A stretch of DNA of 64,000 nucleotides from Candidatus Kapaibacterium sp. Lineage in GTDB: Bacteria; Bacteroidota; Ignavibacteria; Kapaibacteriales; UBA2268. The notes under the pieces were generated by a model. The model worked only from the letters and a program-made list of their open reading frames with translations, was not told where the DNA came from and ran no database searches. Location of the stretch: assembly GCA_035445085.1 (NCBI GenBank), contig DAOMQA010000001.1, positions 118,374-182,373 on the forward strand, written 5' to 3'. Shown one piece after another: positions 2,648 through 64,000 of the stretch; positions within the stretch are counted from its first letter, which is position 1, and every line of letters begins with the position of its first letter. The position numbers and the translations under genes were made by a program.

Positions 2648-3943
2648 TTGATAACTAAGCATAAAATAGTAAATGGCGATAGCCGGCTGATGTCCGAAGT
2701 GTCCGACAATTCAGTTCATTTGGCTATTACTTCTCCACCCTATTGGCAGTTGAAGGACTATGGAAACGACCATCAAATTGGCTTCCACGATAGTTATGAA
2801 AATTATATCAACAACCTGAATTTGGTTTGGAAAGAGTGTTACCGTACTCTACATAACGGTTGTAGGCTGTGCGTAAACATTGGCGACCAATTTGCACGTG
2901 CGGTTTATTATGGTCGCTATAAAGTTATTCCTATACGTGAGGAAATAATTAAGTTCTGTGAGAACATTGGCTTTGACTATATGGGCGCTACCATTTGGCA
3001 AAAAATTACCACCTCTAATACTACAGGGGGAGGTGTTCAAATGGGTTCGTATCCATATCCAAGAAATGGGATTTTGAAATTGGACTATGAATTTATTCTT
3101 GTTTTCAAAAAATTAGGTAACGCACCAAAACCCACAAGAGAACAGAAAGAACTTTCAAAAATGACCGCAGAAGAATGGAATACATTTTTTGCAGGTCATT
3201 GGAATTTTGCGGGTGCAAGGCAGAGCGGGCATATTGCAATGTTTCCCGAAGAATTACCGAGGCGTTTAATTAAAATGTTTTCTTTTGTGGGGGAAACAGT
3301 CCTCGACCCATTCGCTGGAAGCGGAACAACTGCGCTAGCTGCACGTAACTTGGACCGCAATTCGATTGGGTATGAAATCAACCCGGAATTTATCCCACTT
3401 ATTAAAATGAAATTGGAAGTTCAGCAAAAAGATTTGAATGGAACAAGCTATGAGTTTGTAGAACAAAAGCCCATCAAAACTGACTTTGATAAAAAAATCA
3501 AGGAGCAACCTTATATATTTAAAGACCCCCATACACTTAACAAAAAAATTGACGTAAAGAAGTTGCAATTTGGCTCTAAGATTGACAAAGATAGCCCAAG
3601 TGAGCGGGAAGAATTGTTTACTGTTAAAGAAGTGATTAGTGTTGGGAAAATTCGTTTAAGCAATGATTTAATTATAAAACTTATTGGTATAAAAGAAGAC
3701 CCCGTTGCCAATAGCAGAGCAATAAAATTTATCATTGATAAAACGAAGGGGAAACGGGTTTTCATGAAATATGACAAGGTCAAACATGATAGCGAAAATA
3801 ATTTACTATGCTATCTTTATCTAGCAAACAAAACATTTATCAATGCTCATCTAATTAAAAATGGTTTGGCACAGGTAGACAGCGATACGGATTTTAAATA
3901 CAAGGAGAAATTTCTAAACTTTTTGCAGGAACACAATGGATAA
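2648..3943 (+). CDS. beta-class DNA amino-methyltransferase (N4-cytosine or N6-adenine) with C-terminal SNase-like domain
   Basis: Motif IV SPPY (aa ~29) precedes motif I DPFAGSGTT (aa ~222), which is the beta-class order. The C-terminal ~150 aa resemble the thermonuclease fold (…NLLCYLYLANKTFINAHLIKNGLAQVD). The start is TTG at 2648; an alternative ATG lies at 2690. GC content is higher than the surrounding genome. Confidence 0.8.
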   Translation: MITKHKIVNGDSRLMSEVSDNSVHLAITSPPYWQLKDYGNDHQIGFHDSYENYINNLNLVWKECYRTLHNGCRLCVNIGDQFARAVYYGRYKVIPIREEIIKFCENIGFDYMGATIWQKITTSNTTGGGVQMGSYPYPRNGILKLDYEFILVFKKLGNAPKPTREQKELSKMTAEEWNTFFAGHWNFAGARQSGHIAMFPEELPRRLIKMFSFVGETVLDPFAGSGTTALAARNLDRNSIGYEINPEFIPLIKMKLEVQQKDLNGTSYEFVEQKPIKTDFDKKIKEQPYIFKDPHTLNKKIDVKKLQFGSKIDKDSPSEREELFTVKEVISVGKIRLSNDLIIKLIGIKEDPVANSRAIKFIIDKTKGKRVFMKYDKVKHDSENNLLCYLYLANKTFINAHLIKNGLAQVDSDTDFKYKEKFLNFLQEHNG

Positions 3944-5088: not shown

Positions 5089-8000
5089 TTAGTCTATTTT
5101 AATAATTTTTTTGAAATAATACGAATCATTTATCATTAAGTGAATATAATACGTTCCATTTGGCAGACATTTTATATTAATCTTTTGATTATTGCTTTGT
5201 AATACCAATTTATTATCGATATTATATATTTTGCATTCAAAATTATTGATAACTGATTTTGAATGTACGCTAATGTAATCAGAGCTTGGATTTGGACTTA
5301 TTCTTATTTGCTCGTCTTCTACTATATTATTAATTCTTAATTTATATATTTGATTATTTTTAAATCCGTTAAAGCTTTCTGCCCCAAACACCACTTCCAA
5401 ATCGACAATATCTAAATCTTTTATAAATTGCCCATTCTTGTCATATAATTTAACTATAAAATTATCACCAATATTTAAATAATTGTTATAATTTGCAACT
5501 TCATCATTAGCAAATATTGTAATTGTAGACAATCCATTTACAATTCTACCAGAACCAACTAAATTATTTTGATTACCGAACACTGCAAGCTCATAATCAT
5601 TTAGCTCTGAATTTGTTTCTATTATTAATGTTGAATTATTTAGGTTATTTATTTCAACTTTACTTAAATTTTTTGGTATATAATCATTTATATCTTCAGT
5701 TGTAGACTTGGATACAAGATTGTCTGGATATGTTAGCGTATCTAAGGTGGTCAAATACACTTGATATGCCTTACCTTGTACCATATTACCTATAGAATTA
5801 ATACCATAGGCTGGAATATATGTTTTCCCTGATGAGTTTTTAGCAATCACTAATTTACCTTTATTAACAATGCTTGATAAAGCGGTAGCAATATTCATTG
5901 ATGAATTTCTTAAATAAGCCAGATATGACCAGCCAGCTTTAACAATAATAGCCTCATTTTCTGGCTTTATGCTCTCCCCTATTATTTTTAGTATACAAGT
6001 ATTTTTTGCGTATACTTGATAGCCCTGATGCAAATTCCAATTTCCTATTGTATTAATGCCATAAGCTGGAATATATGTTTTCCCTATAGAATTTTTAACA
6101 ATTGAAATATCGTCAGATATGTCCATAAATATACTATCAAGTTTTATACTTCTTGGTAGTACATTACTTGATATTAAATTCCAGCCTGCATTTAAGTTAA
6201 TTTGCAGAGTATCATAGTAAAATGGAAATTTTGATATTATCGATTGCGAACTATCTATAAATTTTGATGGTCCTGAAGAATATTTAACATTGACGATGCT
6301 TTCTATTCCAGATGTAGCTTTCCAAGTCTTAACAACATAATTCTCGTTATCTGCCATGCCGTCTTTTACAAGTGTAGAGCTATTATCTCCCCATATAGTA
6401 ATATGTAAATCACTATTATCCCAAACTCCATATCCAGCACAATATAAATTTGAGTTCCTATAATAAAATATACCTACTGCATCTCCAATTTCGATAGCTT
6501 GCATATTTATTGTAGGGTTAATGGCTTTTGGTAAAATTATTTCCGAACTTTTACCAGTATTAGTAATTGGTTTCCATTTATTATAAATTGGTTCGATACC
6601 AAAGAAAGCAAGATAAATATTATCATTCTGATTCCACCTTTCATTGAGATTAAAACCAGCAATAGTGATATTATATTGGAAATTACCAGTTAGTACAAAA
6701 TTATTATTCTTCAAGAATAGTAAATTCATAGGTGTTGAATTGAATGAGTTATTTTCTGCATATGAATTTATTATTGCACCATTCTTATCTAAAATTGTAA
6801 TTAAAGATGAGTTATTACCATTATTTGTATAAATTTTACCGTTAATATTTATTAGATTTTTAAAAGAAGATGTTAAATAAATATTATCATTTTTGAAATT
6901 GAGGGAATAAGGTATATCCGAAGATGTACCCCCAATATTCTTCTTCCATATCCAATTACCAGAATTAGTGATTTTACCTAAGAATATATCATTATCACCA
7001 TTATGCAAGATATAATCGCCTTCAACTTCCATCAGTGCTTTAAAATTGCCTGCTACATATATATTACCATTATTATCTAATGTAAGGCAATTCGCCGATT
7101 CTACATAATTACTAGTGCCAATAGATTTAGCCCATTGCCATACGCCAGAAGAATTAATTTTTGCAATATACATATCATCTCCTCCGTTAGAAGTGAGAGA
7201 TATTTCGGCAAAATTAACTATATCTTCGTAGCTACCAGCAATATACAAATCATTATTAGTATCAGCGATTATTTTTGCAACATTATCGGTAGAATTACCA
7301 CCCGCCTTTACAACCCAATTTTTCACTAAAGATAAATTTGAAGATAATACAAAAATATCGTCATATATTCCAGCATTGAAGTTTGTACCATCAAAGTTTA
7401 TTGAGTTACTAAATGTTCCTGTAATAGCTATATTATTTGCATATATAGCAAGAGAATTGCAATTATCATCAGCAATTCCGCCATAAGTTTTTATTAAACT
7501 CATATTTCCATTACTATCAAACTTAGCCACCAATATGTCTTTCATGCCAGCACTTGGGTAATTTTGATTTAATACATTGATAGTATCAGAATAATAACCA
7601 GCCACATAATAATTATTCGATGAGTCAATCACAACGGAACGAAATTCATCGTCAGCAATGCTACCAATAGATTTAGCCCACAAAAACCCATTTTCAAGGT
7701 TATACTTAGCAATAAAAGCATCTTTCTTACCGACACTTTGCAAGGTAGTATTAGCAAAAGCAACATTGCCATAATAATAACCGCATAGAATTATATCTTT
7801 ATTCTTATCAACGTCAGACGCCAGCAATTTTATTATACCTTTAAAGCCATAGTTAATTTTATAATTTGTGATACTGCCTAATGAATCGATACTAACAGTG
7901 AAAATATCTGAATCACCCTTAGAGGCTATTGTATCGTTCTTTAAAATTATTTTCTCATTAAATGCTCCTACCAGAACTACATTGCTATCAATATTTGTAG

Positions 8001-9273
8001 TAATAGCAAAGGCATCTATATTGGCATTTCCACGAATTGACTTAAGATATTGAAAATTTCCATTCTTATCAATTTTAGCATAAAAGGCATTCCTCAAATT
8101 CCAAGAACGAACTGTATCAATACCATTGCTAATACTTTGTTCAAAGCCACCACTTAAATGTAAAGCATTATTAAAATAGCTAATAGAATAAATTAGTTCA
8201 TCATTAGGTCCTTTTAGTGTTTTAGCCCATTTCCAATTACCATTACTATCTAATTTTGCAATCCAAATATCTCTATTTGTTGGAATAGCTAAATTTGTAG
8301 TGTCAATTTTAAAAGTTTTAGAATAAAAACCCGCAACAAAAATATCATTATTATCATCAACAACAGAGGTGCTTATTTCATCGCTATTAGAACTCCCTGT
8401 TCGTTTAGCCCATATCCAATTACCGTTGGTGTCAATCTTTGCTACATAAGGGTCTCTACTCCCAGCTGACGTAAGGCTAATTAAGCCGAAAGTAGCCGTA
8501 GAACTAAAATATCCAGTTATTATTAGCTTCTGTTTATTTGCATCAAAATTTATATTATATGAGTCGTCCGTGGAAGAGCTTCCTGCGGATTTAGCCCATT
8601 TCCAATTTCCATTCTTATCTATTTTTGCTACAAAAATATCTTTTGAGCCTTGTGAAGTTAAAGTAGTATTGGCAAATGTTATTGAGGATTCATAATTCCC
8701 ACTTATATAGCAATAATTATTGTCAGCAGTAATAGAATTAGCACGATCGAAGCCATCTCCATCTGCATTTTTTACCCACAGCCAATTGCCATTGCTATCA
8801 AGTTTAGCTACAAATATATCAGAATTACCAAAAGATGTAATTTGGTAGTTGCCAAAATATGCTTTAGCAAAGAAATAACCCGTCAGGAACACTTCACCAT
8901 TTTGGTTTATTGCTATATCTTTTCCATAATCTGATAATTGACTACCAGCAGATTTTGCCCATTTATATTGCCCTTCTTTATTGAGTTTAGCTACAAATAT
9001 ATCTCTGCCCCCGTTACTTACTAATGTATCGTTGCCAAATACAATAATTCCTTCAAAATAGCCAGTGTGATAAATATTTCCTTGCATATCAGATTTTACT
9101 GATATTGATTGATCGTAAGTTGAATATCCAGAGCCATCATTCAAAAGATTGGGTTTATCTAATTTAAACCAATTTTGAGAAATAACTTTACTATTTGGCA
9201 ATAATAGTAGAGCAAATAAAATAATATATAATTTCACTTTAAGATATTCTACAAATCCACTTGAATTCTTCAT
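5089..9273 (-). CDS. giant secreted beta-propeller (SBBP) repeat protein with T9SS C-terminal sorting domain
   Basis: Signal peptide. About 20 repeats of the motif GxxxD.(I/A)FVAK(L/I)D.NGNW.WAK. C-terminal PNPSSDYISV...GTYYIHLM is a type-A T9SS C-terminal domain. Confidence 0.7.
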   Translation of the reverse strand: MKNSSGFVEYLKVKLYIILFALLLLPNSKVISQNWFKLDKPNLLNDGSGYSTYDQSISVKSDMQGNIYHTGYFEGIIVFGNDTLVSNGGRDIFVAKLNKEGQYKWAKSAGSQLSDYGKDIAINQNGEVFLTGYFFAKAYFGNYQITSFGNSDIFVAKLDSNGNWLWVKNADGDGFDRANSITADNNYCYISGNYESSITFANTTLTSQGSKDIFVAKIDKNGNWKWAKSAGSSSTDDSYNINFDANKQKLIITGYFSSTATFGLISLTSAGSRDPYVAKIDTNGNWIWAKRTGSSNSDEISTSVVDDNNDIFVAGFYSKTFKIDTTNLAIPTNRDIWIAKLDSNGNWKWAKTLKGPNDELIYSISYFNNALHLSGGFEQSISNGIDTVRSWNLRNAFYAKIDKNGNFQYLKSIRGNANIDAFAITTNIDSNVVLVGAFNEKIILKNDTIASKGDSDIFTVSIDSLGSITNYKINYGFKGIIKLLASDVDKNKDIILCGYYYGNVAFANTTLQSVGKKDAFIAKYNLENGFLWAKSIGSIADDEFRSVVIDSSNNYYVAGYYSDTINVLNQNYPSAGMKDILVAKFDSNGNMSLIKTYGGIADDNCNSLAIYANNIAITGTFSNSINFDGTNFNAGIYDDIFVLSSNLSLVKNWVVKAGGNSTDNVAKIIADTNNDLYIAGSYEDIVNFAEISLTSNGGDDMYIAKINSSGVWQWAKSIGTSNYVESANCLTLDNNGNIYVAGNFKALMEVEGDYILHNGDNDIFLGKITNSGNWIWKKNIGGTSSDIPYSLNFKNDNIYLTSSFKNLININGKIYTNNGNNSSLITILDKNGAIINSYAENNSFNSTPMNLLFLKNNNFVLTGNFQYNITIAGFNLNERWNQNDNIYLAFFGIEPIYNKWKPITNTGKSSEIILPKAINPTINMQAIEIGDAVGIFYYRNSNLYCAGYGVWDNSDLHITIWGDNSSTLVKDGMADNENYVVKTWKATSGIESIVNVKYSSGPSKFIDSSQSIISKFPFYYDTLQINLNAGWNLISSNVLPRSIKLDSIFMDISDDISIVKNSIGKTYIPAYGINTIGNWNLHQGYQVYAKNTCILKIIGESIKPENEAIIVKAGWSYLAYLRNSSMNIATALSSIVNKGKLVIAKNSSGKTYIPAYGINSIGNMVQGKAYQVYLTTLDTLTYPDNLVSKSTTEDINDYIPKNLSKVEINNLNNSTLIIETNSELNDYELAVFGNQNNLVGSGRIVNGLSTITIFANDEVANYNNYLNIGDNFIVKLYDKNGQFIKDLDIVDLEVVFGAESFNGFKNNQIYKLRINNIVEDEQIRISPNPSSDYISVHSKSVINNFECKIYNIDNKLVLQSNNQKINIKCLPNGTYYIHLMINDSYYFKKIIKID

Positions 9274-24879: not shown

Positions 24880-27800
24880 TTGTTTGTGGTGTATATGAAA
24901 TATATTTACATTTTGTGTATCTTAATATTATCTTCAATTATCGATATTTTAGCGCAGCCAGCAATTTCTTATATTACGCCCGATATAGGCGCTCCTGGAA
25001 TGGCAGTATACGTAGAATTTATAGGACCACATAATAAGAAAAATAACTTTGGAATAGATGGCGTATATATTGCCAAATCTCAAGATACGGAGATAATTCT
25101 ATCTGACAACTCAGATATAGGTAAGGTAAAATTAGGACCTCTCGTAGTCAGTTGGGAGGGTAGAATGATTTCTACTATAATCTATATAAATGATAATTTA
25201 AATCCAGATAAATATGACGCCTTATCAGCAAACCCTAATTATCAAATAGAATTACAAGTAAAAGTAAATGGACAAGTTTCTAATTCACAAACATTTTATA
25301 TCGTAAAATCAAGACCATTTATTGACTTAACAAGTGCAGCATATTCAAAGGATTCGGTTTTTGGTGCTAATAATTTAGGCAAGCGTTCTCCACGTGGCGT
25401 CTTGATATTTGATTCTATCAAATTAGCTCCACGTAAATATTGGGTAAGCTCTGAAGATTGCGATCCTAATGTTGCTGGTAACCAAGCCTTTTTACCTTTT
25501 AACTTATTAGTTAAAGGGAAAATTTACGGTACTGCAAATGCTTCTATAATTAGTGTTAATGGTGGCGAAGTTCTTGAAAATGGCAAATTAAACAATATAG
25601 TTCAAGATGCTCCTGCTGGTGGTGGTGCTGGTGGTGGAAGTTTTGCCGATATATTTGGTATGGGCATTAGAGGCGGGAACGGTTTTACTGGCGGTGGCGC
25701 CGGTGGAAGAAATAAAAGCGGTAATCCTTTTTCAAGTGATAAATTTACTGACCCCTCGGATGGTTCAGGTCCAAGATTAGACAATAACTATGGTGGTTAT
25801 AGCTTAAACGGTGTGCCCGGTCCTAAACAAGCTGCTTATGAAGCTGCTGCTGGTGGCACAGGGCACCCCTTTGGTCGCTCTGGTGAAGGATGTGGCGATG
25901 GTGGAGCTTGTGAACCGACAGGTAGAGAAGGTGGAGGTAGTGGCTGGAAGCAAAACTCACCCGGAGGTAGTGGCGGCTATGCAACGGAAGGTAGTAGTAC
26001 TACAATCGATAGTATTAACGGCGGTAAGCCTTATGGAAATATAATGGTCGTACCTATTGCAGGCGGTTCTGGAGGTGCTGGAGGCAACCCTCAATGTTTT
26101 CCATCTGGCACTAGTGCTGCTGGTGGCGGAGGTGGAGGAGCTATCAGACTAAGCGCCTTATCTATTGAAGGAATAAACTTTGAAGCAAGAGGAGCTAATG
26201 GAGCTACAAATGCTTGCGATAATAGCTTAGGTGGCAGTGGCTCTGGAGGGCATATTGGTATTCAATCTAAGCTAAAAATTAATAAATTAAGAATTAATGT
26301 AGATGGTGGTAATAATAGTGTTACTTTTGGTGGTAGTGGAAGGGTAAGGTTCGACTATCCATCTGCTTTAGATTTAAACCTATCTACTGCTAATGCAAGC
26401 TCATATAGAGGACCAACAACAGATACTTCCCATATTATTATGTCAAATCATATTTTGACAGGCACTCAAGCTAACGGCAAAACTTCACATTTATACATAA
26501 GTAAAGATAGTGATGACTGGAGATTATTAGCAACTCTGACCGATGAAAATTGGTCTTATGATCTAACAAGTTTTTTGAATAAGAGGTCTGGTATATATTA
26601 TGTAGCGGTTGCTACTATTGTCAATAATCCTGTAATAACAGAATATGCAGCCGAACCTCACGAAGTATTATCTGCGGCGGCAACCAATATCCTAAAATTA
26701 GATTTAAGACCATTTGTAAATGGAATTAAGAATGTAGAAGCAAGAAAAATATATTGTGTCGGCGAGACAATGGTATTATCGGCAAAAATATGGAATCAAG
26801 CAAACGCAGAAGCAAATTTAGAATTACAGTTTTCTGATGCTAATTGGTTGATGGGAAATAATGGGTTTAAAATATTAGGTCCTGAAACAAACGGTATTTA
26901 TGGTATCAAACCAGGTGATACATCGGAAATTTTAGTAGAATATACTATGCCTGTAGGAGCAGACCCAAGTCAAAAAGCTACAAATACATTAATAATACCT
27001 TCAAACGATCCTGAATATCCATTAGGAACAGATTGGAGAATAGTATTTACAATCGATGAGGCGTTTACTCCTAAACTAACTTATGTTGGAACGCCCAATT
27101 TAAGTTTTATAGATACGAGGGTTGGCGATTCTAATACATTATCATACTCTATGAAAAATACTGGCGATGCAAACTTATATCTATCTTATATTCAAAGTAT
27201 TCCTGCGCCATATTCATTAGTGTCCACAGCTCCAGTATTACCTACTCTTTTAAAAGTTGGCGACGAAATCCAAGTAAACCTAAAATTCTCACCTAAAACA
27301 AAGGGTGATTTTTCAAGTATAATTACTCTAATTGCCGCAGGAACCGATACGACTTGCCAATTAGAACAACACACTGAAGTGAAAGGCAAAGCCGTTGTTA
27401 CTGATATTGATGTACCCTTACAAATTAATTTAGGTTTAATACCTTATTGTCAGGATAGTGTTATTTTTGCAATTCCAGTAAAAAACGAGTCTTCAGCTAC
27501 ATTTAAAATAACTTCAAAGTCAAAACTGATAGGTCAAGATGCAGATTTATTTACAGTAGTAAGCGATCAACAAGATGAATTAATAGTACAACCTGGCGAG
27601 GGTACTATATACAAAATTAAATTTAACCCTGTAAAATCAAGAAAAGGACCTATAAGTGCTCAATTCTTCTTTACAACCGATGACACAAATTTTGATACAA
27701 TATATGTAGATATAACGGCAGAAATAGTTGGCTTTGAAGCTAAAGCAAACCCAAGCACTATTAATTTAGGTAATGTAGCAGTCGGCTTTGAAATTAATTC

Positions 27801-29457
27801 AAGTTTCGACATCAATAATAGTGCTAAGCTCAACAATAAAATTGCATTAATAAGCTCACAATCAAATTTTGCACAAATACAAGCATTAGCTGATAGTACG
27901 CTTTTAGCAGTAAATGGTGGTAAGACTATTGATTTTTCGTTATATCCCCAAAAAGCTGGTCTTATAGATGACTCAATCACTGTGTATTTTAATGAACCTT
28001 GCTTTGATTCTTTAGTTGTTTATATCAAGGGTAATGCTATTTTGTCAAAACCGTTAGTATATTTTGATAGTGATATTATAATAAAAGATACTAACAATAC
28101 TGACACACGGGAAACCTCATTCGGATATTTTTCAGTTTGTGAATCTCAAAAGTTTAGAAAATTAACAGAGTATATCAACTCGTCCGAAGCGCCGTATATA
28201 GTCTTAAAAGAGGAATTGATAAATGATGCTGGCGGTAGATACAAGCTCTTAAGTAGTTCTTTAGTTCTTCCAGATACTATTTCCCCAAGCGGTAGCACTA
28301 AATTCCCCGGAGCTATAATTGAATTTAATCCAACTGGAGCGTCGGTTGGCGATATTGTAGGCATTTATAGAATTACGATTTATATCAATGGTACGATTAA
28401 AGAGTATGATATTACCTTGAGATCAAGGATATATAGTGGTAAATTTACGATTAGTGAAAATCCTATTAGCATCTTAGGCGTTGTAGGAACAAATACTCAG
28501 AAGAATTTTACAATTACTAATAATGGTCCTGAAGCTTTAATTATTAACAATCATATAGCACCTTTTAATTCAAGCGTATTTATAATTACTCCAAATCCAG
28601 ATGGTTTAATTATACCAATGGGGCAAAGCCAAGTTTTCCAAATTAGCTTTAACCCAACGTTAATTACAACATACTTAGATAGTATTACATTTATAGGTAC
28701 AAACTCAAATTGTGATACGACCTTCGTTGTACTATTAAATGGTAAAGGCGAGCCTTCCAAAGAATTACTTGTATATATACCAGCAATAACAAGCAACCCA
28801 TCAAGTAGGAACTTTAAATTACCTATATATGGCAAATTCAAAAAAGCTACCGATAGTATGGATAATATGAATATATTTTTCAAGTTGAGACTAAATAGGA
28901 GCCTTTATTATCCTGAAAACATTGAAGGTGGAATTATTGATAATAATCAAATTGATGGACGTGATAGAGTTTTAGATTTAGAATTTAATAATATTAAGGT
29001 AAGCCCAAGCGATACGCTAATTGGCAACTTGATTGGAACAACTATGCTTGGAGATAGTAAATTTACGGATTTGATAATTTCGGATTTAGATATATTAGAA
29101 CGCAACTTAGTTAGCACAATTGAGGGAGTAAACGGTAAATTAACAATTGAAATTTGTGAAGAGGGTGATAGCCGCTTATTAGAGCATAATTTAAACCCAT
29201 TTAGAACCATAATAAATCCAAATCCAGCTCAAGATGTTGTCAATATTACCATAAATACCTTAGAGAGAGGCAAACATATTGCTGTAATAAGTGATTTGTC
29301 TGGTAGAGAATTATTTAAGATAGATTGGAATCCGATAAATAGTGGCGAAGAAAAGCAATTCCTATTAGATGTTAGCAACTTTGATTCTGGCATTTATTTT
29401 ATCCAAGTATATTCGCCTAATGATGTAATTTATTCAAAAATTAATATAATAAAATAA
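24880..29457 (+). CDS. giant secreted protein with Gly-rich low-complexity region, multiple Ig-like/beta-sandwich repeats and T9SS C-terminal sorting domain
   Basis: Signal peptide. Gly-rich stretch at aa ~245-480. C-terminal NPNPAQDVVNITIN…SGIYFIQVYSPN is a type-A T9SS C-terminal domain. Confidence 0.65.
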   Translation: MFVVYMKYIYILCILILSSIIDILAQPAISYITPDIGAPGMAVYVEFIGPHNKKNNFGIDGVYIAKSQDTEIILSDNSDIGKVKLGPLVVSWEGRMISTIIYINDNLNPDKYDALSANPNYQIELQVKVNGQVSNSQTFYIVKSRPFIDLTSAAYSKDSVFGANNLGKRSPRGVLIFDSIKLAPRKYWVSSEDCDPNVAGNQAFLPFNLLVKGKIYGTANASIISVNGGEVLENGKLNNIVQDAPAGGGAGGGSFADIFGMGIRGGNGFTGGGAGGRNKSGNPFSSDKFTDPSDGSGPRLDNNYGGYSLNGVPGPKQAAYEAAAGGTGHPFGRSGEGCGDGGACEPTGREGGGSGWKQNSPGGSGGYATEGSSTTIDSINGGKPYGNIMVVPIAGGSGGAGGNPQCFPSGTSAAGGGGGGAIRLSALSIEGINFEARGANGATNACDNSLGGSGSGGHIGIQSKLKINKLRINVDGGNNSVTFGGSGRVRFDYPSALDLNLSTANASSYRGPTTDTSHIIMSNHILTGTQANGKTSHLYISKDSDDWRLLATLTDENWSYDLTSFLNKRSGIYYVAVATIVNNPVITEYAAEPHEVLSAAATNILKLDLRPFVNGIKNVEARKIYCVGETMVLSAKIWNQANAEANLELQFSDANWLMGNNGFKILGPETNGIYGIKPGDTSEILVEYTMPVGADPSQKATNTLIIPSNDPEYPLGTDWRIVFTIDEAFTPKLTYVGTPNLSFIDTRVGDSNTLSYSMKNTGDANLYLSYIQSIPAPYSLVSTAPVLPTLLKVGDEIQVNLKFSPKTKGDFSSIITLIAAGTDTTCQLEQHTEVKGKAVVTDIDVPLQINLGLIPYCQDSVIFAIPVKNESSATFKITSKSKLIGQDADLFTVVSDQQDELIVQPGEGTIYKIKFNPVKSRKGPISAQFFFTTDDTNFDTIYVDITAEIVGFEAKANPSTINLGNVAVGFEINSSFDINNSAKLNNKIALISSQSNFAQIQALADSTLLAVNGGKTIDFSLYPQKAGLIDDSITVYFNEPCFDSLVVYIKGNAILSKPLVYFDSDIIIKDTNNTDTRETSFGYFSVCESQKFRKLTEYINSSEAPYIVLKEELINDAGGRYKLLSSSLVLPDTISPSGSTKFPGAIIEFNPTGASVGDIVGIYRITIYINGTIKEYDITLRSRIYSGKFTISENPISILGVVGTNTQKNFTITNNGPEALIINNHIAPFNSSVFIITPNPDGLIIPMGQSQVFQISFNPTLITTYLDSITFIGTNSNCDTTFVVLLNGKGEPSKELLVYIPAITSNPSSRNFKLPIYGKFKKATDSMDNMNIFFKLRLNRSLYYPENIEGGIIDNNQIDGRDRVLDLEFNNIKVSPSDTLIGNLIGTTMLGDSKFTDLIISDLDILERNLVSTIEGVNGKLTIEICEEGDSRLLEHNLNPFRTIINPNPAQDVVNITINTLERGKHIAVISDLSGRELFKIDWNPINSGEEKQFLLDVSNFDSGIYFIQVYSPNDVIYSKINIIK
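25600..26350 (+). repeat. Gly-codon-rich low-complexity coding segment (local GC spike)
   Basis: Runs of GGT/GGC/GGA codons (…GGGAGGGS…GGSGGAGG…AAGGGGGGA…). These produce a PPAPP mirror ORF on the opposite strand. Confidence 0.6.
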
Positions 29458-54303: not shown

Positions 54304-56001
54304 ATGAAATATTTAATTCAATTTTGTATTGTTTTAATTACTTTCAACTATCTGTGGGCTCAACCAACTATCACTAATAAGATGACCCCACAAATAGGTG
54401 AGAAGTATGCTTACTCTTATTACGATACTGTAGGGGTAAAGCAAGGAAATGCTGGAGCAAATGTATTGTGGGATTTTTCAACATTGGTCAAACTACAAGG
54501 AAGCGAACAAACTGTAAACTTTGAAATAGTATCTCCAAATACTACTCCATATGCTAATACTTTTGCAGGCGCTAACTATGCTTATAAGCAAAAAGATGCA
54601 GAGAATCAAACTGATTCTTATGTATATTACAAATCTTCGTCAGATAGGATTGAAAGATTAGGGGTTGGATTTGCAGAAGGTGCCGAAATATTATCTGATT
54701 GGGAACTTGTCCAAAAATTTCCTTTTACTTATGAAGATTCTTTTAGTGATGCGTTCAAAGGTACTATCGATGTAGTTGCAGAAGGGCAATCTTTTAATCT
54801 GAAAAGAGGAGGAAGTATAGCTATTACTGCCGATGCTTACGGCACTTTAAAACTACCGTCAGGTACATTTAGCAATGTATTGAGATTAAAAGTTATCCAA
54901 AGTATATCTGACACATTGCCTCCACCAATACCTGGAATGTCTGGTGGAATGATGAACACCAATACAGAATCCTATATATGGGTATCAAACGATTTTAAAT
55001 TTGCAATTTTATCAATCTCTCAAGTACAGTCAGAAGTAATTATAAGCGGTATGCCAACTAATAAAGTTAAGGCAGCAAATGTACAAGTATACGACTTTAC
55101 GCCTCCTACTACATCTACTCTGTCTACTCCTAAAATTTTAGCTCCTGAAAATGGTCAAAGTGGATTACAGATACCAGTTAAGTTAGAATGGGAAGCATCA
55201 AACCTAAGTAAAACTACAAAGAATAGTGATGAAATTCAGGAATCACCTCTATATACTGTATATGTTGCTGATAACGAAGATTTTACTGATAATGATCAAC
55301 TTCAAATATTTGAAGGTTTAACAGCAACAACAATAGAAGTTGATAATTTAGTAGAAGGAACAAAATATTATTGGAAAGTAAAAGCGTATATCGGTGATAC
55401 CGAAAGCGAATGGTCTGATATTAATAATTTTACAACAAAGCTACCTAAACCACAAGCTGCCGTTTTAATTAGCCCAGAAAATGGTGCAAGTAATGTTGCA
55501 TTCAATGGTTTAACTCTAAAATGGAAGTCAAATAATTTAGTTGCTGCTACTAGGATTGTTCTTAATGGTCCAAGTAAGATAGAAGAAATATTGAATAATG
55601 AATCTACTTATAATATTTCTGGCTTAGAGCCAAACAGCACTTATACTTGGAAAGTAATGTTTTATAATGAAGAGGGAGATAGCTCGGATTGGTCTGATGA
55701 ATGGACCTTTGTTACTTCTCCAGAAACAAGCGTTGATGATAATAGCGGATCTAATTCATTTATTATAAAAAATAATATATTAAATAATTCTATTTCTATA
55801 GATTATACATCTCAATATTTCTTTAATTCTACGATTTCTATTTTTGATTTAAATGGTAACGTAACTTTTAATACGAATGTAGAAGTTAAACATGGTAACA
55901 ATCATTTTGATATAAATTTACCAAAGATTAGTGCTGGAGTATATTTATTACAAATGAATACTAATAATAGCATATTAAGAAAATCAATAATTATTGAATA
56001 A
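54304..56001 (+). CDS. secreted fibronectin-III-repeat protein with T9SS C-terminal sorting domain
   Basis: Signal peptide. Repeated ~90-aa W…Y.W.V motifs. C-terminal …AGVYLLQMNTNNSILRKSIIIE. Confidence 0.55.
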   Translation: MKYLIQFCIVLITFNYLWAQPTITNKMTPQIGEKYAYSYYDTVGVKQGNAGANVLWDFSTLVKLQGSEQTVNFEIVSPNTTPYANTFAGANYAYKQKDAENQTDSYVYYKSSSDRIERLGVGFAEGAEILSDWELVQKFPFTYEDSFSDAFKGTIDVVAEGQSFNLKRGGSIAITADAYGTLKLPSGTFSNVLRLKVIQSISDTLPPPIPGMSGGMMNTNTESYIWVSNDFKFAILSISQVQSEVIISGMPTNKVKAANVQVYDFTPPTTSTLSTPKILAPENGQSGLQIPVKLEWEASNLSKTTKNSDEIQESPLYTVYVADNEDFTDNDQLQIFEGLTATTIEVDNLVEGTKYYWKVKAYIGDTESEWSDINNFTTKLPKPQAAVLISPENGASNVAFNGLTLKWKSNNLVAATRIVLNGPSKIEEILNNESTYNISGLEPNSTYTWKVMFYNEEGDSSDWSDEWTFVTSPETSVDDNSGSNSFIIKNNILNNSISIDYTSQYFFNSTISIFDLNGNVTFNTNVEVKHGNNHFDINLPKISAGVYLLQMNTNNSILRKSIIIE

Positions 56002-59841: not shown

Positions 59842-61365
59842 CTACTCTAAAGAGCCAATCTCATTTTCTACAGCGTCTAATATTTTGCAAGATTTTACTA
59901 ATTCTTTCATAGTATTATGATCTTTAAATAATGGGCGGTCAATATCAAGAAATTCTATATGTTCGCGTATAATATTATGGGCTGCCGATGTTCCTTTTCC
60001 TGTAGTATAATCGCGTAAATCAAGGGCTTGGGCTGCTGCCATAAATTCAATACCAAGAATGCCGTAAGCATTGTCAATAATTTGTTGATTTTTCCATATA
60101 GTATTCATTCCCATAGATACAAAATCCTCTTGGTCTGCCGCCGCCGGAATAGATTGTACATAAGCAGGATTTGATAATAGTCTTTGTTCTACAATTAATG
60201 TATCGGCAGTATATTGGCTTAGCATCATACCAGAGAACATTCCCGCTCCTTTTGTTAAAAAGGCTGGCAAACCTTGGCTAAGAGCTGGGTTTAAGAGTCT
60301 ATTTAGTCTACGTTCCGATAGCACACATACCATAGTAAGTGAAGCACCTGCCGCATCAACGGGCAAAGATACCGGCGTTCCTTGGAAATTAGCACCTGTG
60401 AGAGTTTCATTTGTATCAGGTAAAAATATTGGATTATCAGCAACGCCATTCAATTCTATTTCGACTTGCGAACGTGCATAACTAAGCATATCGTGCGCCG
60501 CACCTATAATTTGCGGAGTGGAACGCAATGAATAGGCGTCTTGTACCTTTGTTTTTATCTTGCCACTTACCAAATCGCTACCGCTAATTATATTTTTAAT
60601 TGACTTGGCTGAACGAACAGCACCGCCAAAGCCGCGAATTTGATGAAGGCGCTCATCATAAGGCTTCATATTTGCCATCAATGCTTCGATAGACATTGCG
60701 GCGGCTATTTCAGCCATTTTCAAAATTTTATTTATATCATAAATTTGCAAGGAGGCAATAGCTGTAATGAAATTTGAACCATTTATAGAGGCTAAACCAT
60801 CGCGTGCTTGTAGTCCGGGTATATCTATACCTGCTTTTTCCATAGCAATTCTAGTAGGCATTCTTGCTCCTTGATAGAATGATTCGCCTTCGCCCATTAA
60901 AGATAAGGCTATTTGCGACATTGGCGCTAAATCACCAGAGGCACCGACTGACCCCTTTTGACATACTATTGGAGTTACACCTTTATTGAGCATTTCAACA
61001 TAAGTTTGTGTAATTTCTGGTCTGCAACCAGAATTGCCATGAGCATGTACGTTGATCCTCGAAGCCATTGCACCACGAACGAAAGGTATAGGCATAGGGT
61101 CGCCAATACCAGCAGCATGGTTATATATAAGGTATTTTTGAAATTCCTTGATTTGTTCATCATTTAAAACTATTTCTGAAAATTCACCAATACCAGTATT
61201 TACGCCATACATTATTTCTTGTTTTGCTATCTTATCTTCTAATACTTTCCTACATTTTTTAATTAAATCTAATGATTCTAAGGATAGTTCTATACTTTCA
61301 TTGTTGCGAGAAATATCAACTATTTTTTCTATTGTAAGATTATAACCATCTAATATTATTGCCAT
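59842..61365 (-). CDS. hutH: histidine ammonia-lyase
   Basis: GSVGASGDLAPMS (Ala-Ser-Gly MIO-forming triad). Confidence 0.85.
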   Translation of the reverse strand: MAIILDGYNLTIEKIVDISRNNESIELSLESLDLIKKCRKVLEDKIAKQEIMYGVNTGIGEFSEIVLNDEQIKEFQKYLIYNHAAGIGDPMPIPFVRGAMASRINVHAHGNSGCRPEITQTYVEMLNKGVTPIVCQKGSVGASGDLAPMSQIALSLMGEGESFYQGARMPTRIAMEKAGIDIPGLQARDGLASINGSNFITAIASLQIYDINKILKMAEIAAAMSIEALMANMKPYDERLHQIRGFGGAVRSAKSIKNIISGSDLVSGKIKTKVQDAYSLRSTPQIIGAAHDMLSYARSQVEIELNGVADNPIFLPDTNETLTGANFQGTPVSLPVDAAGASLTMVCVLSERRLNRLLNPALSQGLPAFLTKGAGMFSGMMLSQYTADTLIVEQRLLSNPAYVQSIPAAADQEDFVSMGMNTIWKNQQIIDNAYGILGIEFMAAAQALDLRDYTTGKGTSAAHNIIREHIEFLDIDRPLFKDHNTMKELVKSCKILDAVENEIGSLE

Positions 61366-61508
61366 TTTACCCTCTATTTTTGTATTTAAGTATTTCGCAA
61401 AAATAGCATTTTTTTTATTACTATATAAGTGAATGGTTAATTTTTAGCAATGAATTGTAAGCTATTTATGTTAAATTGCAGATTGGAAGTGAGTAATTTT
61501 TAATTTTA

Positions 61509-61593
61509 AAATCGTCTGAACTAAGATTCGCAGGATGAAAAAGATGAACACAATCGTCTAAACCAGGATTCGCAGGATGAACAAGATAAACAG
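61509..61593 (+). repeat. ~42-bp imperfect tandem direct repeat x2
   Basis: The unit aatcgtct(g/a)aac(t/c)a(a/g)gattcgcaggatgaa(a/c)aaga occurs twice in tandem, ~75 bp upstream of the GIY-YIG gene. Confidence 0.6.
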
Positions 61594-61666
61594 GATGTAA
61601 AAAAGAATACAAACAATCATGCTAATCCTAAAATCAAGTAAATCATGATTCTGACAAAAAAAATAA

Positions 61667-62182
61667 ATGAAAGGTTATATGTACATATTGGAATGTAGCA
61701 ATGGTAGTTATTATACCGGAAGTACCATTGATTTACAACGGCGTTTTGAACAACATCAAAATGGCGAAGGGGCTAATCATACCAAAAAGTATTTGCCAGT
61801 TAAATTAGTCTATTACGAAGAATTTCAACGAATAGATGAAGCATTTAATCGCGAGAAACAAGTACAAGGCTGGAGTAGAAAAAAGAAAGAAGCACTGATT
61901 AATGGAACATCGGAATTATTACCAAAATTAGCTATTGCGTATCGAGACAAAAACGGTGGTTTCGAGGACCTCAACCACCAGCGAGAACCAATGTCGCCTG
62001 AGGTTCTCGAAGGCAAGGCTATCGAAGGCAAGGCTATCGAAGGCGAAAACGGTGGTTTCGAGGACCTCAACCACCGGACAGACGAGAGCCTCAACCACCA
62101 ACACGAGCCGCCGACGCCTGAGGTTCTCGAAGGCAAGGCTATCGAAGGCGAAGTAACAACAATTAAAAAGAATACACAATGA
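61667..62182 (+). CDS. GIY-YIG nuclease family protein with repeat-derived C-terminal extension
   Basis: N-terminal ~95 aa (GYMYILECSNGSYYTGSTIDLQRRFEQH…) match the small GIY-YIG family. The last ~75 aa are encoded by GC-rich repeat units. Its TGA stop overlaps the hsdS ATG (ATGA). Confidence 0.7.
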   Translation: MKGYMYILECSNGSYYTGSTIDLQRRFEQHQNGEGANHTKKYLPVKLVYYEEFQRIDEAFNREKQVQGWSRKKKEALINGTSELLPKLAIAYRDKNGGFEDLNHQREPMSPEVLEGKAIEGKAIEGENGGFEDLNHRTDESLNHQHEPPTPEVLEGKAIEGEVTTIKKNTQ

Positions 62183-62400
62183 ACAATATACAAAAATTAC
62201 TGGGGGCTGAGGTTCTCGAAGGCAAAAACGGTGGTTTCGAGAACCTCAACCACCGGAAGCAAGACATCGACGAGGACCTCAACCACCAGCGAGAACCAAT
62301 GTCGCCTGAGGTTCTCGAAGGCGAGGTTCTCGAAGGCGAGGTTCTCGAAGGCGAGGTTCTCGAAGGCAAGGCTATCGAAGGCAAGGCTATCGAAGCCCCA
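61955..62400 (+). repeat. GC-rich in-frame repeat block (25-nt palindromic units plus 15-nt tandem units)
   Basis: GGTGGTTTCGAG(G/A)ACCTCAACCACC at 61955, 62051, 62230, with partial copies at 62086 and 62272. Tandem 15-nt units gaggttctcgaaggc/aaggctatcgaaggc at 62000-62044 and 62308-62397. About 55% GC against ~30% background. Confidence 0.85.
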
Positions 62401-63651
62401 AATAACGTGCAATGGAAAACGCTGGGGGAAGTGGTTTCAACAGTTACGGCATCAACAAAATTAAAAAAAGAAGCTTATCGGGAAAAAGGTAAAATTCCAA
62501 TTATTGACCAAGGAATTGAATTTATTGCTGGTTATACTGATGGTTTGTTAACTACAGTTCAGAAAGGAGAATATGTTATTTTTGGTGACCATTCAGAGCA
62601 TATTAAATATGTTGATTTCGAATTCATTCAGGGAGCTGATGGATTGAAAATATTAAAATCAAATTCAAATTCAAATGAAACAAAGTATATCTATTATGCA
62701 TTTCTAAATTTCTATCGAAAAGAATTAAATTATAAACGTCATTGGTCAACAGCAAAAGAAATAAAAATCCCCATCCCCCCGATCGCCGTCCAACAAGAAA
62801 TTGTACGCATATTGGATAAATTTACAGAGCTAACAGCGGAGCTAACAGCGGAGCTAACAGCGGAGCTAACAGCCAGAAAAAAACAGTATCAGTATTATCG
62901 TGAGAAATTATTGTCGCCTGAGGTTCTCGAAGGCAAAAACGGTGGTTTCGAGAGCCTCAACCACCGGAAGCAAGACGAGAACCTCAACCACCAGCACAAG
63001 ACGCCGACGCCTGAGGTTCTCGAAGGCGAGGCTCTCGAAGGCGAGGTTCTCGAAGCCCAAAATAAGGTACAATGGAAAACGCTGGGAGAGGTGGCTTTAC
63101 AAACTTCAAATATTCGTTGGCGTGATACAGAAAATTCATATAGATATATTGACCTAACTTCTGTTTGTCGAGAAACAAATACAATTATTGAGACAACCGA
63201 AATTTCTAAAGAAAATGCACCAAGTAGAGCACAAAAAATAGTACTTAAAAATGATGTAATTTTCGCAACAACAAGACCTACACAAATGAGATTATGTTTA
63301 ATCGATGATGAATATTCTGGACAAATCGCAAGTACAGGTTATTGCGTTTTGAGACCTAAAAAAGAAGAAGTTTTATCAAAATGGATATATTTTAATCTAA
63401 CCAAATCAGATTTTAGAAGCTATCTTGAAGAAAATCAAAGTGGTTCTGCGTATCCAGCTATTTCAGATTCAAAACTTAAAGAATTCAAAATCCCCATCCC
63501 TCCCCTTGCAGAGCAAGAACGCATTGTGCGGATATTGGATAAATTTGATACCTTAGTTAATTCCATCAGCGAGGGTTTGCCTAAGGAGATAGAGCTAAGG
63601 CAAAAGCAGTATGAATATTATCGGGATAAATTATTAAATTTTAATGCTTAA
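62179..63651 (+). CDS. hsdS: Type I restriction-modification specificity subunit (HsdS), two target-recognition domains
   Basis: Two halves, each with NxVQWKTLGEV…(target-recognition domain)…IPIPP(I/L)A(V/E)Q(Q/E)(E/R)IVRILDKF…KQY(Q/E)YYR(E/D)KLL. No hsdM or hsdR within the window. Confidence 0.85.
   Translation: MNNIQKLLGAEVLEGKNGGFENLNHRKQDIDEDLNHQREPMSPEVLEGEVLEGEVLEGEVLEGKAIEGKAIEAPNNVQWKTLGEVVSTVTASTKLKKEAYREKGKIPIIDQGIEFIAGYTDGLLTTVQKGEYVIFGDHSEHIKYVDFEFIQGADGLKILKSNSNSNETKYIYYAFLNFYRKELNYKRHWSTAKEIKIPIPPIAVQQEIVRILDKFTELTAELTAELTAELTARKKQYQYYREKLLSPEVLEGKNGGFESLNHRKQDENLNHQHKTPTPEVLEGEALEGEVLEAQNKVQWKTLGEVALQTSNIRWRDTENSYRYIDLTSVCRETNTIIETTEISKENAPSRAQKIVLKNDVIFATTRPTQMRLCLIDDEYSGQIASTGYCVLRPKKEEVLSKWIYFNLTKSDFRSYLEENQSGSAYPAISDSKLKEFKIPIPPLAEQERIVRILDKFDTLVNSISEGLPKEIELRQKQYEYYRDKLLNFNA
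62827..62874 (+). repeat. 12-nt tandem repeat x4 (gagctaacagcg) encoding ELTA/TAEL in the HsdS central conserved region
   Basis: Three perfect units plus one terminal variant (…cagcc). The protein reads FTELTAELTAELTAELTARKK. Confidence 0.9.
62915..63060 (+). repeat. second copy of the GC-rich repeat block, inserted between the HsdS central region and TRD2
   Basis: Palindromic unit at 62941-62965, partial at 62976-62991, and gaggttctcgaaggc-type 15-mers. Confidence 0.85.
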
Positions 63652-63681
63652 TTGTTGATGATGAGTATATTTAATAACTTT

Positions 63682-63713
63682 AACCCTGAATTATATTTTT
63701 TATAATCAGGGTT
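63682..63713. terminator. inverted repeat / possible terminator downstream of hsdS
   Basis: AACCCTGA-(16 nt AT loop)-TCAGGGTT. Confidence 0.3.
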
Positions 63714-63756
63714 GTATATAAATATTATATTATCTTGAAAACTTTATGGAGTTTTT

Positions 63757-64000
63757 CTAATTCTTAGCTATAAAATATCGTATGTATTCTTGCTTGTTGT
63801 TGCTACAATAATACTTAATACCTACTACTTTCCCATTATTTATAATTTCGTATAAATAGTTAAAATTAGCGTCTGTAAATACGTGATTAAAACTTATTTC
63901 ATTTTCACTATACTGGCTTGCTATTGTATCTGGTAATGATAGGTCAATAAAATACGAGTAAGCTGACTTAACTATTTGATTTTGTATGGTAGTATCTTGT
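63757..64000 (-). CDS. 3' end of a minus-strand gene truncated by the window edge (hypothetical)
   Basis: An open frame of ~80 codons with no in-window start and stop TAG at ~63757, found by manual translation. Absent from the ORF track because it lacks a Met. Confidence 0.3.
   Translation of the reverse strand, partial: QDTTIQNQIVKSAYSYFIDLSLPDTIASQYSENEISFNHVFTDANFNYLYEIINNGKVVGIKYYCSNNKQEYIRYFIAKN

Follow-up and report, generated by a model that had tools for sequence, protein, structure and literature searches.

A TAEL-type repeat as the probable spacer-length module of an EcoR124-like HsdS in a Kapabacteria genome

The 12-nt tandem repeat at 62827-62874 of the window (the whole 64-kb stretch of DNA that was analysed, from a metagenome-assembled genome of Candidatus Kapabacteria, to which exact matches of neighbouring proteins assign it) is best explained, with good confidence, as the module that sets spacer length in a Type IC-like HsdS of the EcoR124 family. 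Its position and number of units are those of a known kind of repeat, of which it is an ordinary member. The unusual feature of this locus is the set of hairpin and GIY-YIG insertions, more so than the TAEL tract. The repeat is one more case of a well-documented mechanism and its value is mainly practical: it lets the target gap be predicted for an uncharacterised Type I specificity subunit from an uncultured Kapabacteria lineage. As a family-wide by-product, the central linker was found to hold only 1 to 4 units across about 300 members.

An EcoR124-like specificity subunit

The gene that carries the repeat had been named hsdS in the earlier note, and this identity is borne out by two Methylase_S stretches (Pfam PF01420, E=1e-36), by the PADLOC Specificity_I model (E=1e-88), and by alignment with EcoR124II at the TAEL repeat. 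The features of the locus are as follows, with the evidence in brackets.

61667-62182, plus strand: GIY-YIG nuclease gene, domain at 61667-61945 (Pfam GIY-YIG, E=7.5e-19)
62179-63651, plus strand: hsdS, Type I restriction-modification specificity subunit, 490 aa (Pfam, PADLOC, homologues)
62206-62403, plus strand: insertion 1, in frame, 198 nt, 56% GC, between 'KLLG' (N-terminal) and 'NVQWKTLGEV'
62407-62778, plus strand: target recognition domain (TRD) 1, aa 77-200 (pLDDT >90; alignment with EcoR124II TRD1; relatives of 66-74% identity)
62782-62910, plus strand: central conserved helix, aa 202-244, which contains the repeat, one strand of the predicted coiled-coil spacer (AlphaFold2, pLDDT 85-96)
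62827-62874, plus strand: 12-nt tandem repeat, three copies of GAGCTAACAGCG and one of GAGCTAACAGCC (Tandem Repeats Finder, sequence, translation, alignment with the EcoR124II TAEL)
62917-63063, plus strand: insertion 2, in frame, 147 nt, 57% GC, between 'EKLLS' (central) and 'KVQWKTLGEV'
63067-63501, plus strand: TRD2, aa 297-441 (pLDDT >90; match to TRD1 of PDB 5ybb/3okg, E=6e-35)
63505-63639, plus strand: C-terminal conserved helix, aa 443-487, predicted partner of the central helix, with a linker, DTLVNSISEGLPKEIEL, of 17 aa (AlphaFold2 model)
63757-64000, minus strand: convergent open reading frame that runs past the window end (six-frame translation)

When solved structures were searched (phmmer against PDB), the top match was the HsdS of EcoR124II, PDB 7bst (E=1.3e-52), with EcoKI, of Type IA, at 5.6e-4. 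In the alignment, LDKF-TELTAELTAELTAELTA-RKKQY of the query is set against LDKF-TALTAELTAELNM-RKKQY of EcoR124II, and as printed LDKFTELTAELTAELTAELTARKKQY stands over LDKFTALTAEL----TAELNMRKKQY. The query repeat lies over the EcoR124II TAEL and is thus homologous to this classical repeat, with one 4-aa unit more than EcoR124II has. It is characteristic of Type IC that four-residue units such as TAEL, LEAT, SEAL or TSEL are repeated in tandem in the central region (PMC10030836), and such a repeat, (ELTA)4, is present in the central conserved region here. Assignment of the gene to the EcoR124 (Type IC-like) family is supported by these comparisons.

An AlphaFold2 model of the protein, built from an alignment of 60 sequences (mean pLDDT 80), predicts two confident TRDs and two long helices, residues 202-244 and 443-487, with helix pLDDT of 81-97. 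The central helix region and the C-terminal conserved region also share a direct repeat (D4). As modelled, the two helices appear able to form the antiparallel coiled-coil spacer.

Four units of a TAEL-type repeat

According to Tandem Repeats Finder, the tract has a period of 12 with 3.9 copies at 62827-62873, 100% matches and no indels, and the unit is GAGCTAACAGCG. The fourth unit, GAGCTAACAGCC at 62863-62874, differs from the three GAGCTAACAGCG copies before it only in its last base. The earlier description of four near-perfect 12-nt units at 62827-62874 is therefore exact. By chance, about 4e-15 runs with a period of 12 and 35 or more matching positions would be expected in this 32%-GC window. 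The tract is in frame with the open reading frame at 62179-63651 (plus strand) and codes for FTELTAELTAELTAELTARKKQY, that is (ELTA)4, at aa 217-232; the surrounding protein reads ...ILDKF-TELTAELTAELTAELTA-RKKQYQYYREKLLS. [quoted passage not shown]

Gain and loss of units among relatives

The linker was measured from L-D-x-F to R-K-K-Q-Y in 246 homologues from two protein searches. Central linkers of 5, 9, 13 and 17 aa, corresponding to 1 to 4 units, were found in 4, 13, 58 and 51 homologues, respectively, and none was longer. Four units make up about 40% of the central linkers, a frequency about that of three units, the state that a review has termed 'optimal'. In the C-terminal helix the equivalent linker measures 17 aa in 116 of 119 homologues. 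Four units give 17 aa, so that the central linker then equals that of its partner helix in length; this 4-unit state is as common as the 3-unit one.

At the DNA level, 57 distinct central regions were read, from 80 related genome loci and from metagenome loci. At least 12 of the 57, in unrelated taxa, carry TELTAELTAELTAELTA with at least 35 positions of perfect period-12 identity, as in the window; the taxa with a perfect fourfold repeat include Clostridium, Snodgrassella, Haloimpatiens, Fusibacter, Saprospiraceae and Gemmiger. Among the genes compared, a perfect fourfold repeat is thus common and not special. Adjacent units within genes are identical in DNA in 59 of 139 pairs, and synonymous differences separate the units of different genes (GAGCTTACAGCA, GAGCTGACCGCC and GAACTTACGGCG, among others). 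The window unit GAGCTAACAGCG is unique among the genes compared. Units that are alike within genes and unlike between them amount to concerted evolution, and hence to a turnover of units faster than point mutation; the homogenised DNA within genes indicates that this turnover is continuing.

Further evidence is a pair of metagenomic hsdS alleles, L122 (Ga0116187) with four units and L201 (Ga0116185) with three, which are exactly one 12-nt unit apart and otherwise show 1387 matches and 2 mismatches (99.9% identical). Judged from such comparisons, gain and loss of units is real and recurrent in the EcoR124-like family on evolutionary time scales. The earlier note had proposed that copy number could vary, and at the level of the family it does, as seen in the quantised linkers of the 246 homologues, the identity of units within genes, and the one-unit difference between L122 and L201. 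For the window gene itself, a search with TRD1 and the central region for partial strain variants gave a best match of 74% identity and no orthologues, and a scan of species-representative genome contigs gave a closest relative 49-50% identical.

From repeat number to target gap

The 12-bp TAEL sequence is present twice in EcoR124I, which recognises GAA N6 RTCG, and three times in EcoR124II, which recognises GAA N7 RTCG (Loenen et al., PMC3874165); the rule quoted in the earlier note, two versus three TAEL for N6 versus N7, agrees with this literature. In gonococcal strains, one or two LEAT repeats correspond to methylation of GAC N6 TGC or GAC N7 TGC (Sánchez-Busó et al., PMC6789123). The rule that one unit equals one bp of gap is established for EcoR124I/II and NgoAV. 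In the window gene, (ELTA)4 would form just over four alpha-helical turns of the central conserved helix. This helix is predicted to pair antiparallel with the C-terminal helix, and the pair would fix the distance and twist between the two TRDs; each 4-aa unit would therefore widen the non-specific gap between the two halves of the target by one bp. The four units give a central linker of 17 aa, a length not commonly exceeded among family members. We infer a gap one bp above that of a 3-unit allele, roughly N7-N8, the absolute value depending on the TRDs. TAEL copy numbers were reportedly also engineered by Gubler and Bickle in 1991/1992.

In-frame hairpin insertions

Homologues are 375-420 aa long and extend over no more than 89% of the query; the HsdS of the window exceeds them by about 100 aa because it contains two in-frame insertions. 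Insertion 1 consists of hairpin repeats, including GAGGTTCTCGAAGGC x5.9, and insertion 2 comes from the same family. The element comprises a core, GGTGGTTTCGAGRRCCTCAACCACC, with arrays of CCTGAGGTTCTCGAAGGC or of GAGGTTCTCGAAGGC. The genome has 32% GC, against 53-57% in the four copies of the element: the GIY-YIG tail holds two of them and hsdS the other two, and no others were found elsewhere in the 64-kb window. Including flank, insertions 1 and 2 are 93% identical (direct repeat D3). Their sites are equivalent in structure: each follows 'KLL', where a conserved helix ends, and precedes 'VQWKTLGEV', where a TRD begins. Both have a length divisible by three and no stops in 4 of 6 frames, and both fold as stable hairpins (z=-6.3 for insertion 1, folded as DNA, and z=-2.8 for insertion 2). 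In the AlphaFold2 model they are disordered, with pLDDT <50 for residues 1-70 and 259-286. Insertion 1 is absent from homologues. No Rfam family was matched at E<=1 in 61300-64000.

The insertions hold in-frame arrays with a 15-nt period, namely GAGGTTCTCGAAGGC x5.9 at 62308-62395 and x2.9 at 63013-63055, and TCGAAGGCAAGGCTA x2.5 is found at 62007-62044. These arrays encode EVLEG/KAIEG repeats in hsdS and in the GIY-YIG tail. As they have more copies (up to x5.9), they would be at least as likely to slip as the TAEL tract; such slippage would alter only the length of a disordered linker.

GIY-YIG genes and hairpins elsewhere

The stop codon of the GIY-YIG gene overlaps the start of hsdS (ATGA). 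Its 77-aa tail is made of two further hairpin-repeat units (61946-62178), and its relatives are mostly 96-97 aa long. Over 120 metagenome contigs, from a wide range of habitats, carry the 25-nt hairpin core, and of 124 distinct core contexts about one fifth fall within long open frames. On 20 of the core contigs there is a GIY-YIG gene with 73-84% identity to that of the window, often with '...LPKLAxAYRDL' just ahead of the hairpin, and 12 of these 20 also carry Type I genes, with a recurrent order of hsdM, GIY-YIG, hairpins, hsdS. Loci with this order are L183, L201, L138, L159, L104/L173/L164, L105/L174, L161 and L130. L122, L183 and L201 have the hairpin, again in frame, at the central junction that it occupies in the window, but their hsdS is a different one and the hairpin is read in another frame. 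None of the 80 related loci that are free of hairpins has a GIY-YIG gene.

The GIY-YIG family is large, with more than 6900 relatives, mostly of 96-97 aa and many of them 80-93% identical, in varied contexts. In unbiased contexts, close homologues were seen to follow an MmeI-like methyltransferase and RadC, UvrC-SSB, or MnmE, or to lie near hsdM. A role as a dedicated Type I accessory gene was rejected in view of these contexts, and the gene looks like a dispersed multi-copy gene, probably mobile, rather than a dedicated Type I component. It is tentatively suggested, as a reading that we hold to be rather doubtful, that the hairpins and the GIY-YIG gene constitute an undescribed nuclease-associated palindromic mobile element, which may favour Type I specificity genes and add disordered linkers or portable homology for TRD exchange. 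If true, GIY-YIG-linked hairpins in hsdS would be a new way for selfish repeats to remodel a defence gene. Nothing relevant on GIY-YIG with hsdS, or on in-frame palindromic repeats in Bacteroidota, was found in the searchable literature.

A solitary hsdS

Partner genes are usual among relatives: hsdM lies within 10 kb in 71 of 80 related loci, and hsdR in 74. In the window, HsdM and HsdR of Flavobacterium piscinae (L008) gave no tblastn match over 64 kb at E<=1e-5, and Pfam revealed neither gene among the 28 largest open reading frames; the hsdM-hsdS-hsdR locus of Type IC systems is thus absent from the 64-kb window. Upstream of hsdS lie a divergent hutH and the GIY-YIG nuclease gene. The convergent open reading frame downstream means that no co-directional hsdR follows hsdS. 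A terminator scan returned no sites. Because hsdM and hsdR are missing from the 64 kb, the activity of HsdS and any effect on the methylome would depend on partner genes, maybe elsewhere in the genome, and the activity of this solitary, repeat-invaded hsdS is uncertain.

The alternative to be weighed most seriously is that the tract is a relic in an inactive orphan, which has lost its hsdM and hsdR partners and is being colonised by repeats, so that the TAEL tract has no present function. It is suggested by the 64 kb with neither partner, by the convergent gene downstream, and by the two foreign insertions, 66 and 49 codons long and in frame, which may bear on assembly with HsdM. The exact HsdS is also absent from a collection of 15 billion proteins in which neighbours from the same contig are present, as would fit an uncalled gene or a pseudogene. 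The open reading frame of 490 codons is nevertheless intact, both insertions being stop-free multiples of three, and both TRDs (pLDDT >90) and both helices (81-97) are modelled. Moreover, a similarly invaded hsdS stands in a complete hsdM-GIY-hsdS-hsdR operon in L201, and there is a precedent in Lactococcus, where solitary hsdS genes use HsdM and HsdR encoded elsewhere. Decay of this kind is a substantial possibility, if not the one we would expect, and a spacer module in a gene of intact frame is the reading preferred here.

Rate of change and assembly

Slipped-strand mispairing or unequal recombination could add or remove a unit in frame, a change made possible by the identity of the units in DNA. 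Four copies of a 12-nt unit are a short tract, in which slippage far below that of classical phase-variable tracts is expected. A true phase-variable switch (phasevarion), in which the tract changes length at high frequency and subpopulations differ in methylation specificity, is unlikely in the window. The perfect identity of the units, the near-identical alleles one unit apart in the sibling metagenomes Ga0116187 and Ga0116185, and the published strain-level variation in Neisseria and Xylella would all agree with a switch. Against these stand the mere four copies of a long unit and the partner methyltransferase not found in the window, and for Atack et al. (PMC7383803) the use of in-frame tracts of this kind in specificity switching is still a hypothesis awaiting test. 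Inversion-type (shufflon) switching was excluded as a separate candidate, there being no second hsdS copy and no inverted arms: both hsdS halves matched only hsdS itself when compared with the window by tblastn, and no inverted repeats of hsdS length were detected in it.

An assembly artefact, with an error in the copy number or throughout the repeat-rich hsdS, is very improbable. In its favour, the source is a metagenome-assembled genome, and the hairpin repeats of the GIY-YIG gene interrupt each of six short-read contigs that come from other samples. Against it, the 48-nt TAEL tract is below read length with unique flanks, the reading frame is preserved through all repeats, and the same architecture is seen in independent metagenome contigs. 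The six contigs (L001-L006, Logan contigs from six SRA runs with identical hutH) end inside or just before these repeats. The exact GIY-YIG protein, like the exact HsdS, is absent from the protein collection, and the breaking of short-read assemblies by the repeats may be the reason for both absences.

Other genes and repeats of the window

A 42-nt tandem repeat (two copies, 87% identity) is located at 61510-61592, between the divergent hutH and GIY-YIG genes. The open reading frame at 2648-3943 (plus strand) combines an N6_N4_Mtase domain (PF01555) with a C-terminal staphylococcal-nuclease (SNase) domain; this methyltransferase fusion is unrelated to hsdS and lies 58 kb away. Por_Secre_tail sorting domains (type IX secretion) are present in three large secreted proteins, at 5089-9273 (minus strand), 24880-29457 (plus strand) and 54304-56001 (plus strand), and are consistent with an origin in the FCB group (Kapabacteria).

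Comparison with known systems

The closest known systems are EcoR124I and EcoR124II (7bst). The conserved regions LDKF...RKKQY.YYR..LL and the domain order are the same, and so is the tetra-amino-acid repeat (TAEL/ELTA), encoded by 12 nt at an equal position in the central helix; EcoR124I has two units, EcoR124II three, and the window hsdS four. Unlike EcoR124, the window gene is interrupted at its helix-to-TRD junctions by disordered insertions (66 and 49 residues), and hsdM and hsdR are not adjacent. The hosts also differ, being a Kapabacteria metagenome-assembled genome here and an enterobacterial plasmid for EcoR124.

In hsdS of NgoAV (Neisseria, LEAT) and XfaII (Xylella, LEAE), the number of 12-nt units in the central region varies naturally among strains, and in NgoAV unit changes come with 1-bp changes of the spacer. 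Xylella strains with one TRD allele hold 0.75-3.75 LEAE units, with the exception of Hib4, whose 11.75 units are beyond the usual range (bioRxiv 10.1101/2022.09.01.506293). The usual published range of 0.75-3.75 agrees with the 1-4 units among the homologues in this study. NgoAV and XfaII stand in complete operons and have methylome data, which sets them apart from the window hsdS.

The metagenomic hsdS of L122, L201, L183 and L159 are of one family with the window gene and hold 3 or 4 perfect units (TELEAELEA...). They share with the window a GIY-YIG gene upstream and a hairpin repeat in frame at the central hsdS junction. They differ from the window in having other TRDs and a full hsdM-GIY-hsdS-hsdR operon. 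The hairpin frame also differs, reading VVSRASTT in L122, L183 and L201 and GGFENLNH in the window.

For the hairpin insertions, the Rickettsia palindromic elements (RPE) and REP/RAYT are analogues only. Both are short palindromic repeats that spread within a genome. RPEs enter protein genes without disturbing the reading frame, and each REP system has its own nuclease or transposase gene. Unlike either, the repeats of the window are GC-rich in a 32%-GC genome, accompany a GIY-YIG nuclease of about 97 aa, form arrays with a tandem 15-nt period, and sit at hsdS junctions that are symmetric.
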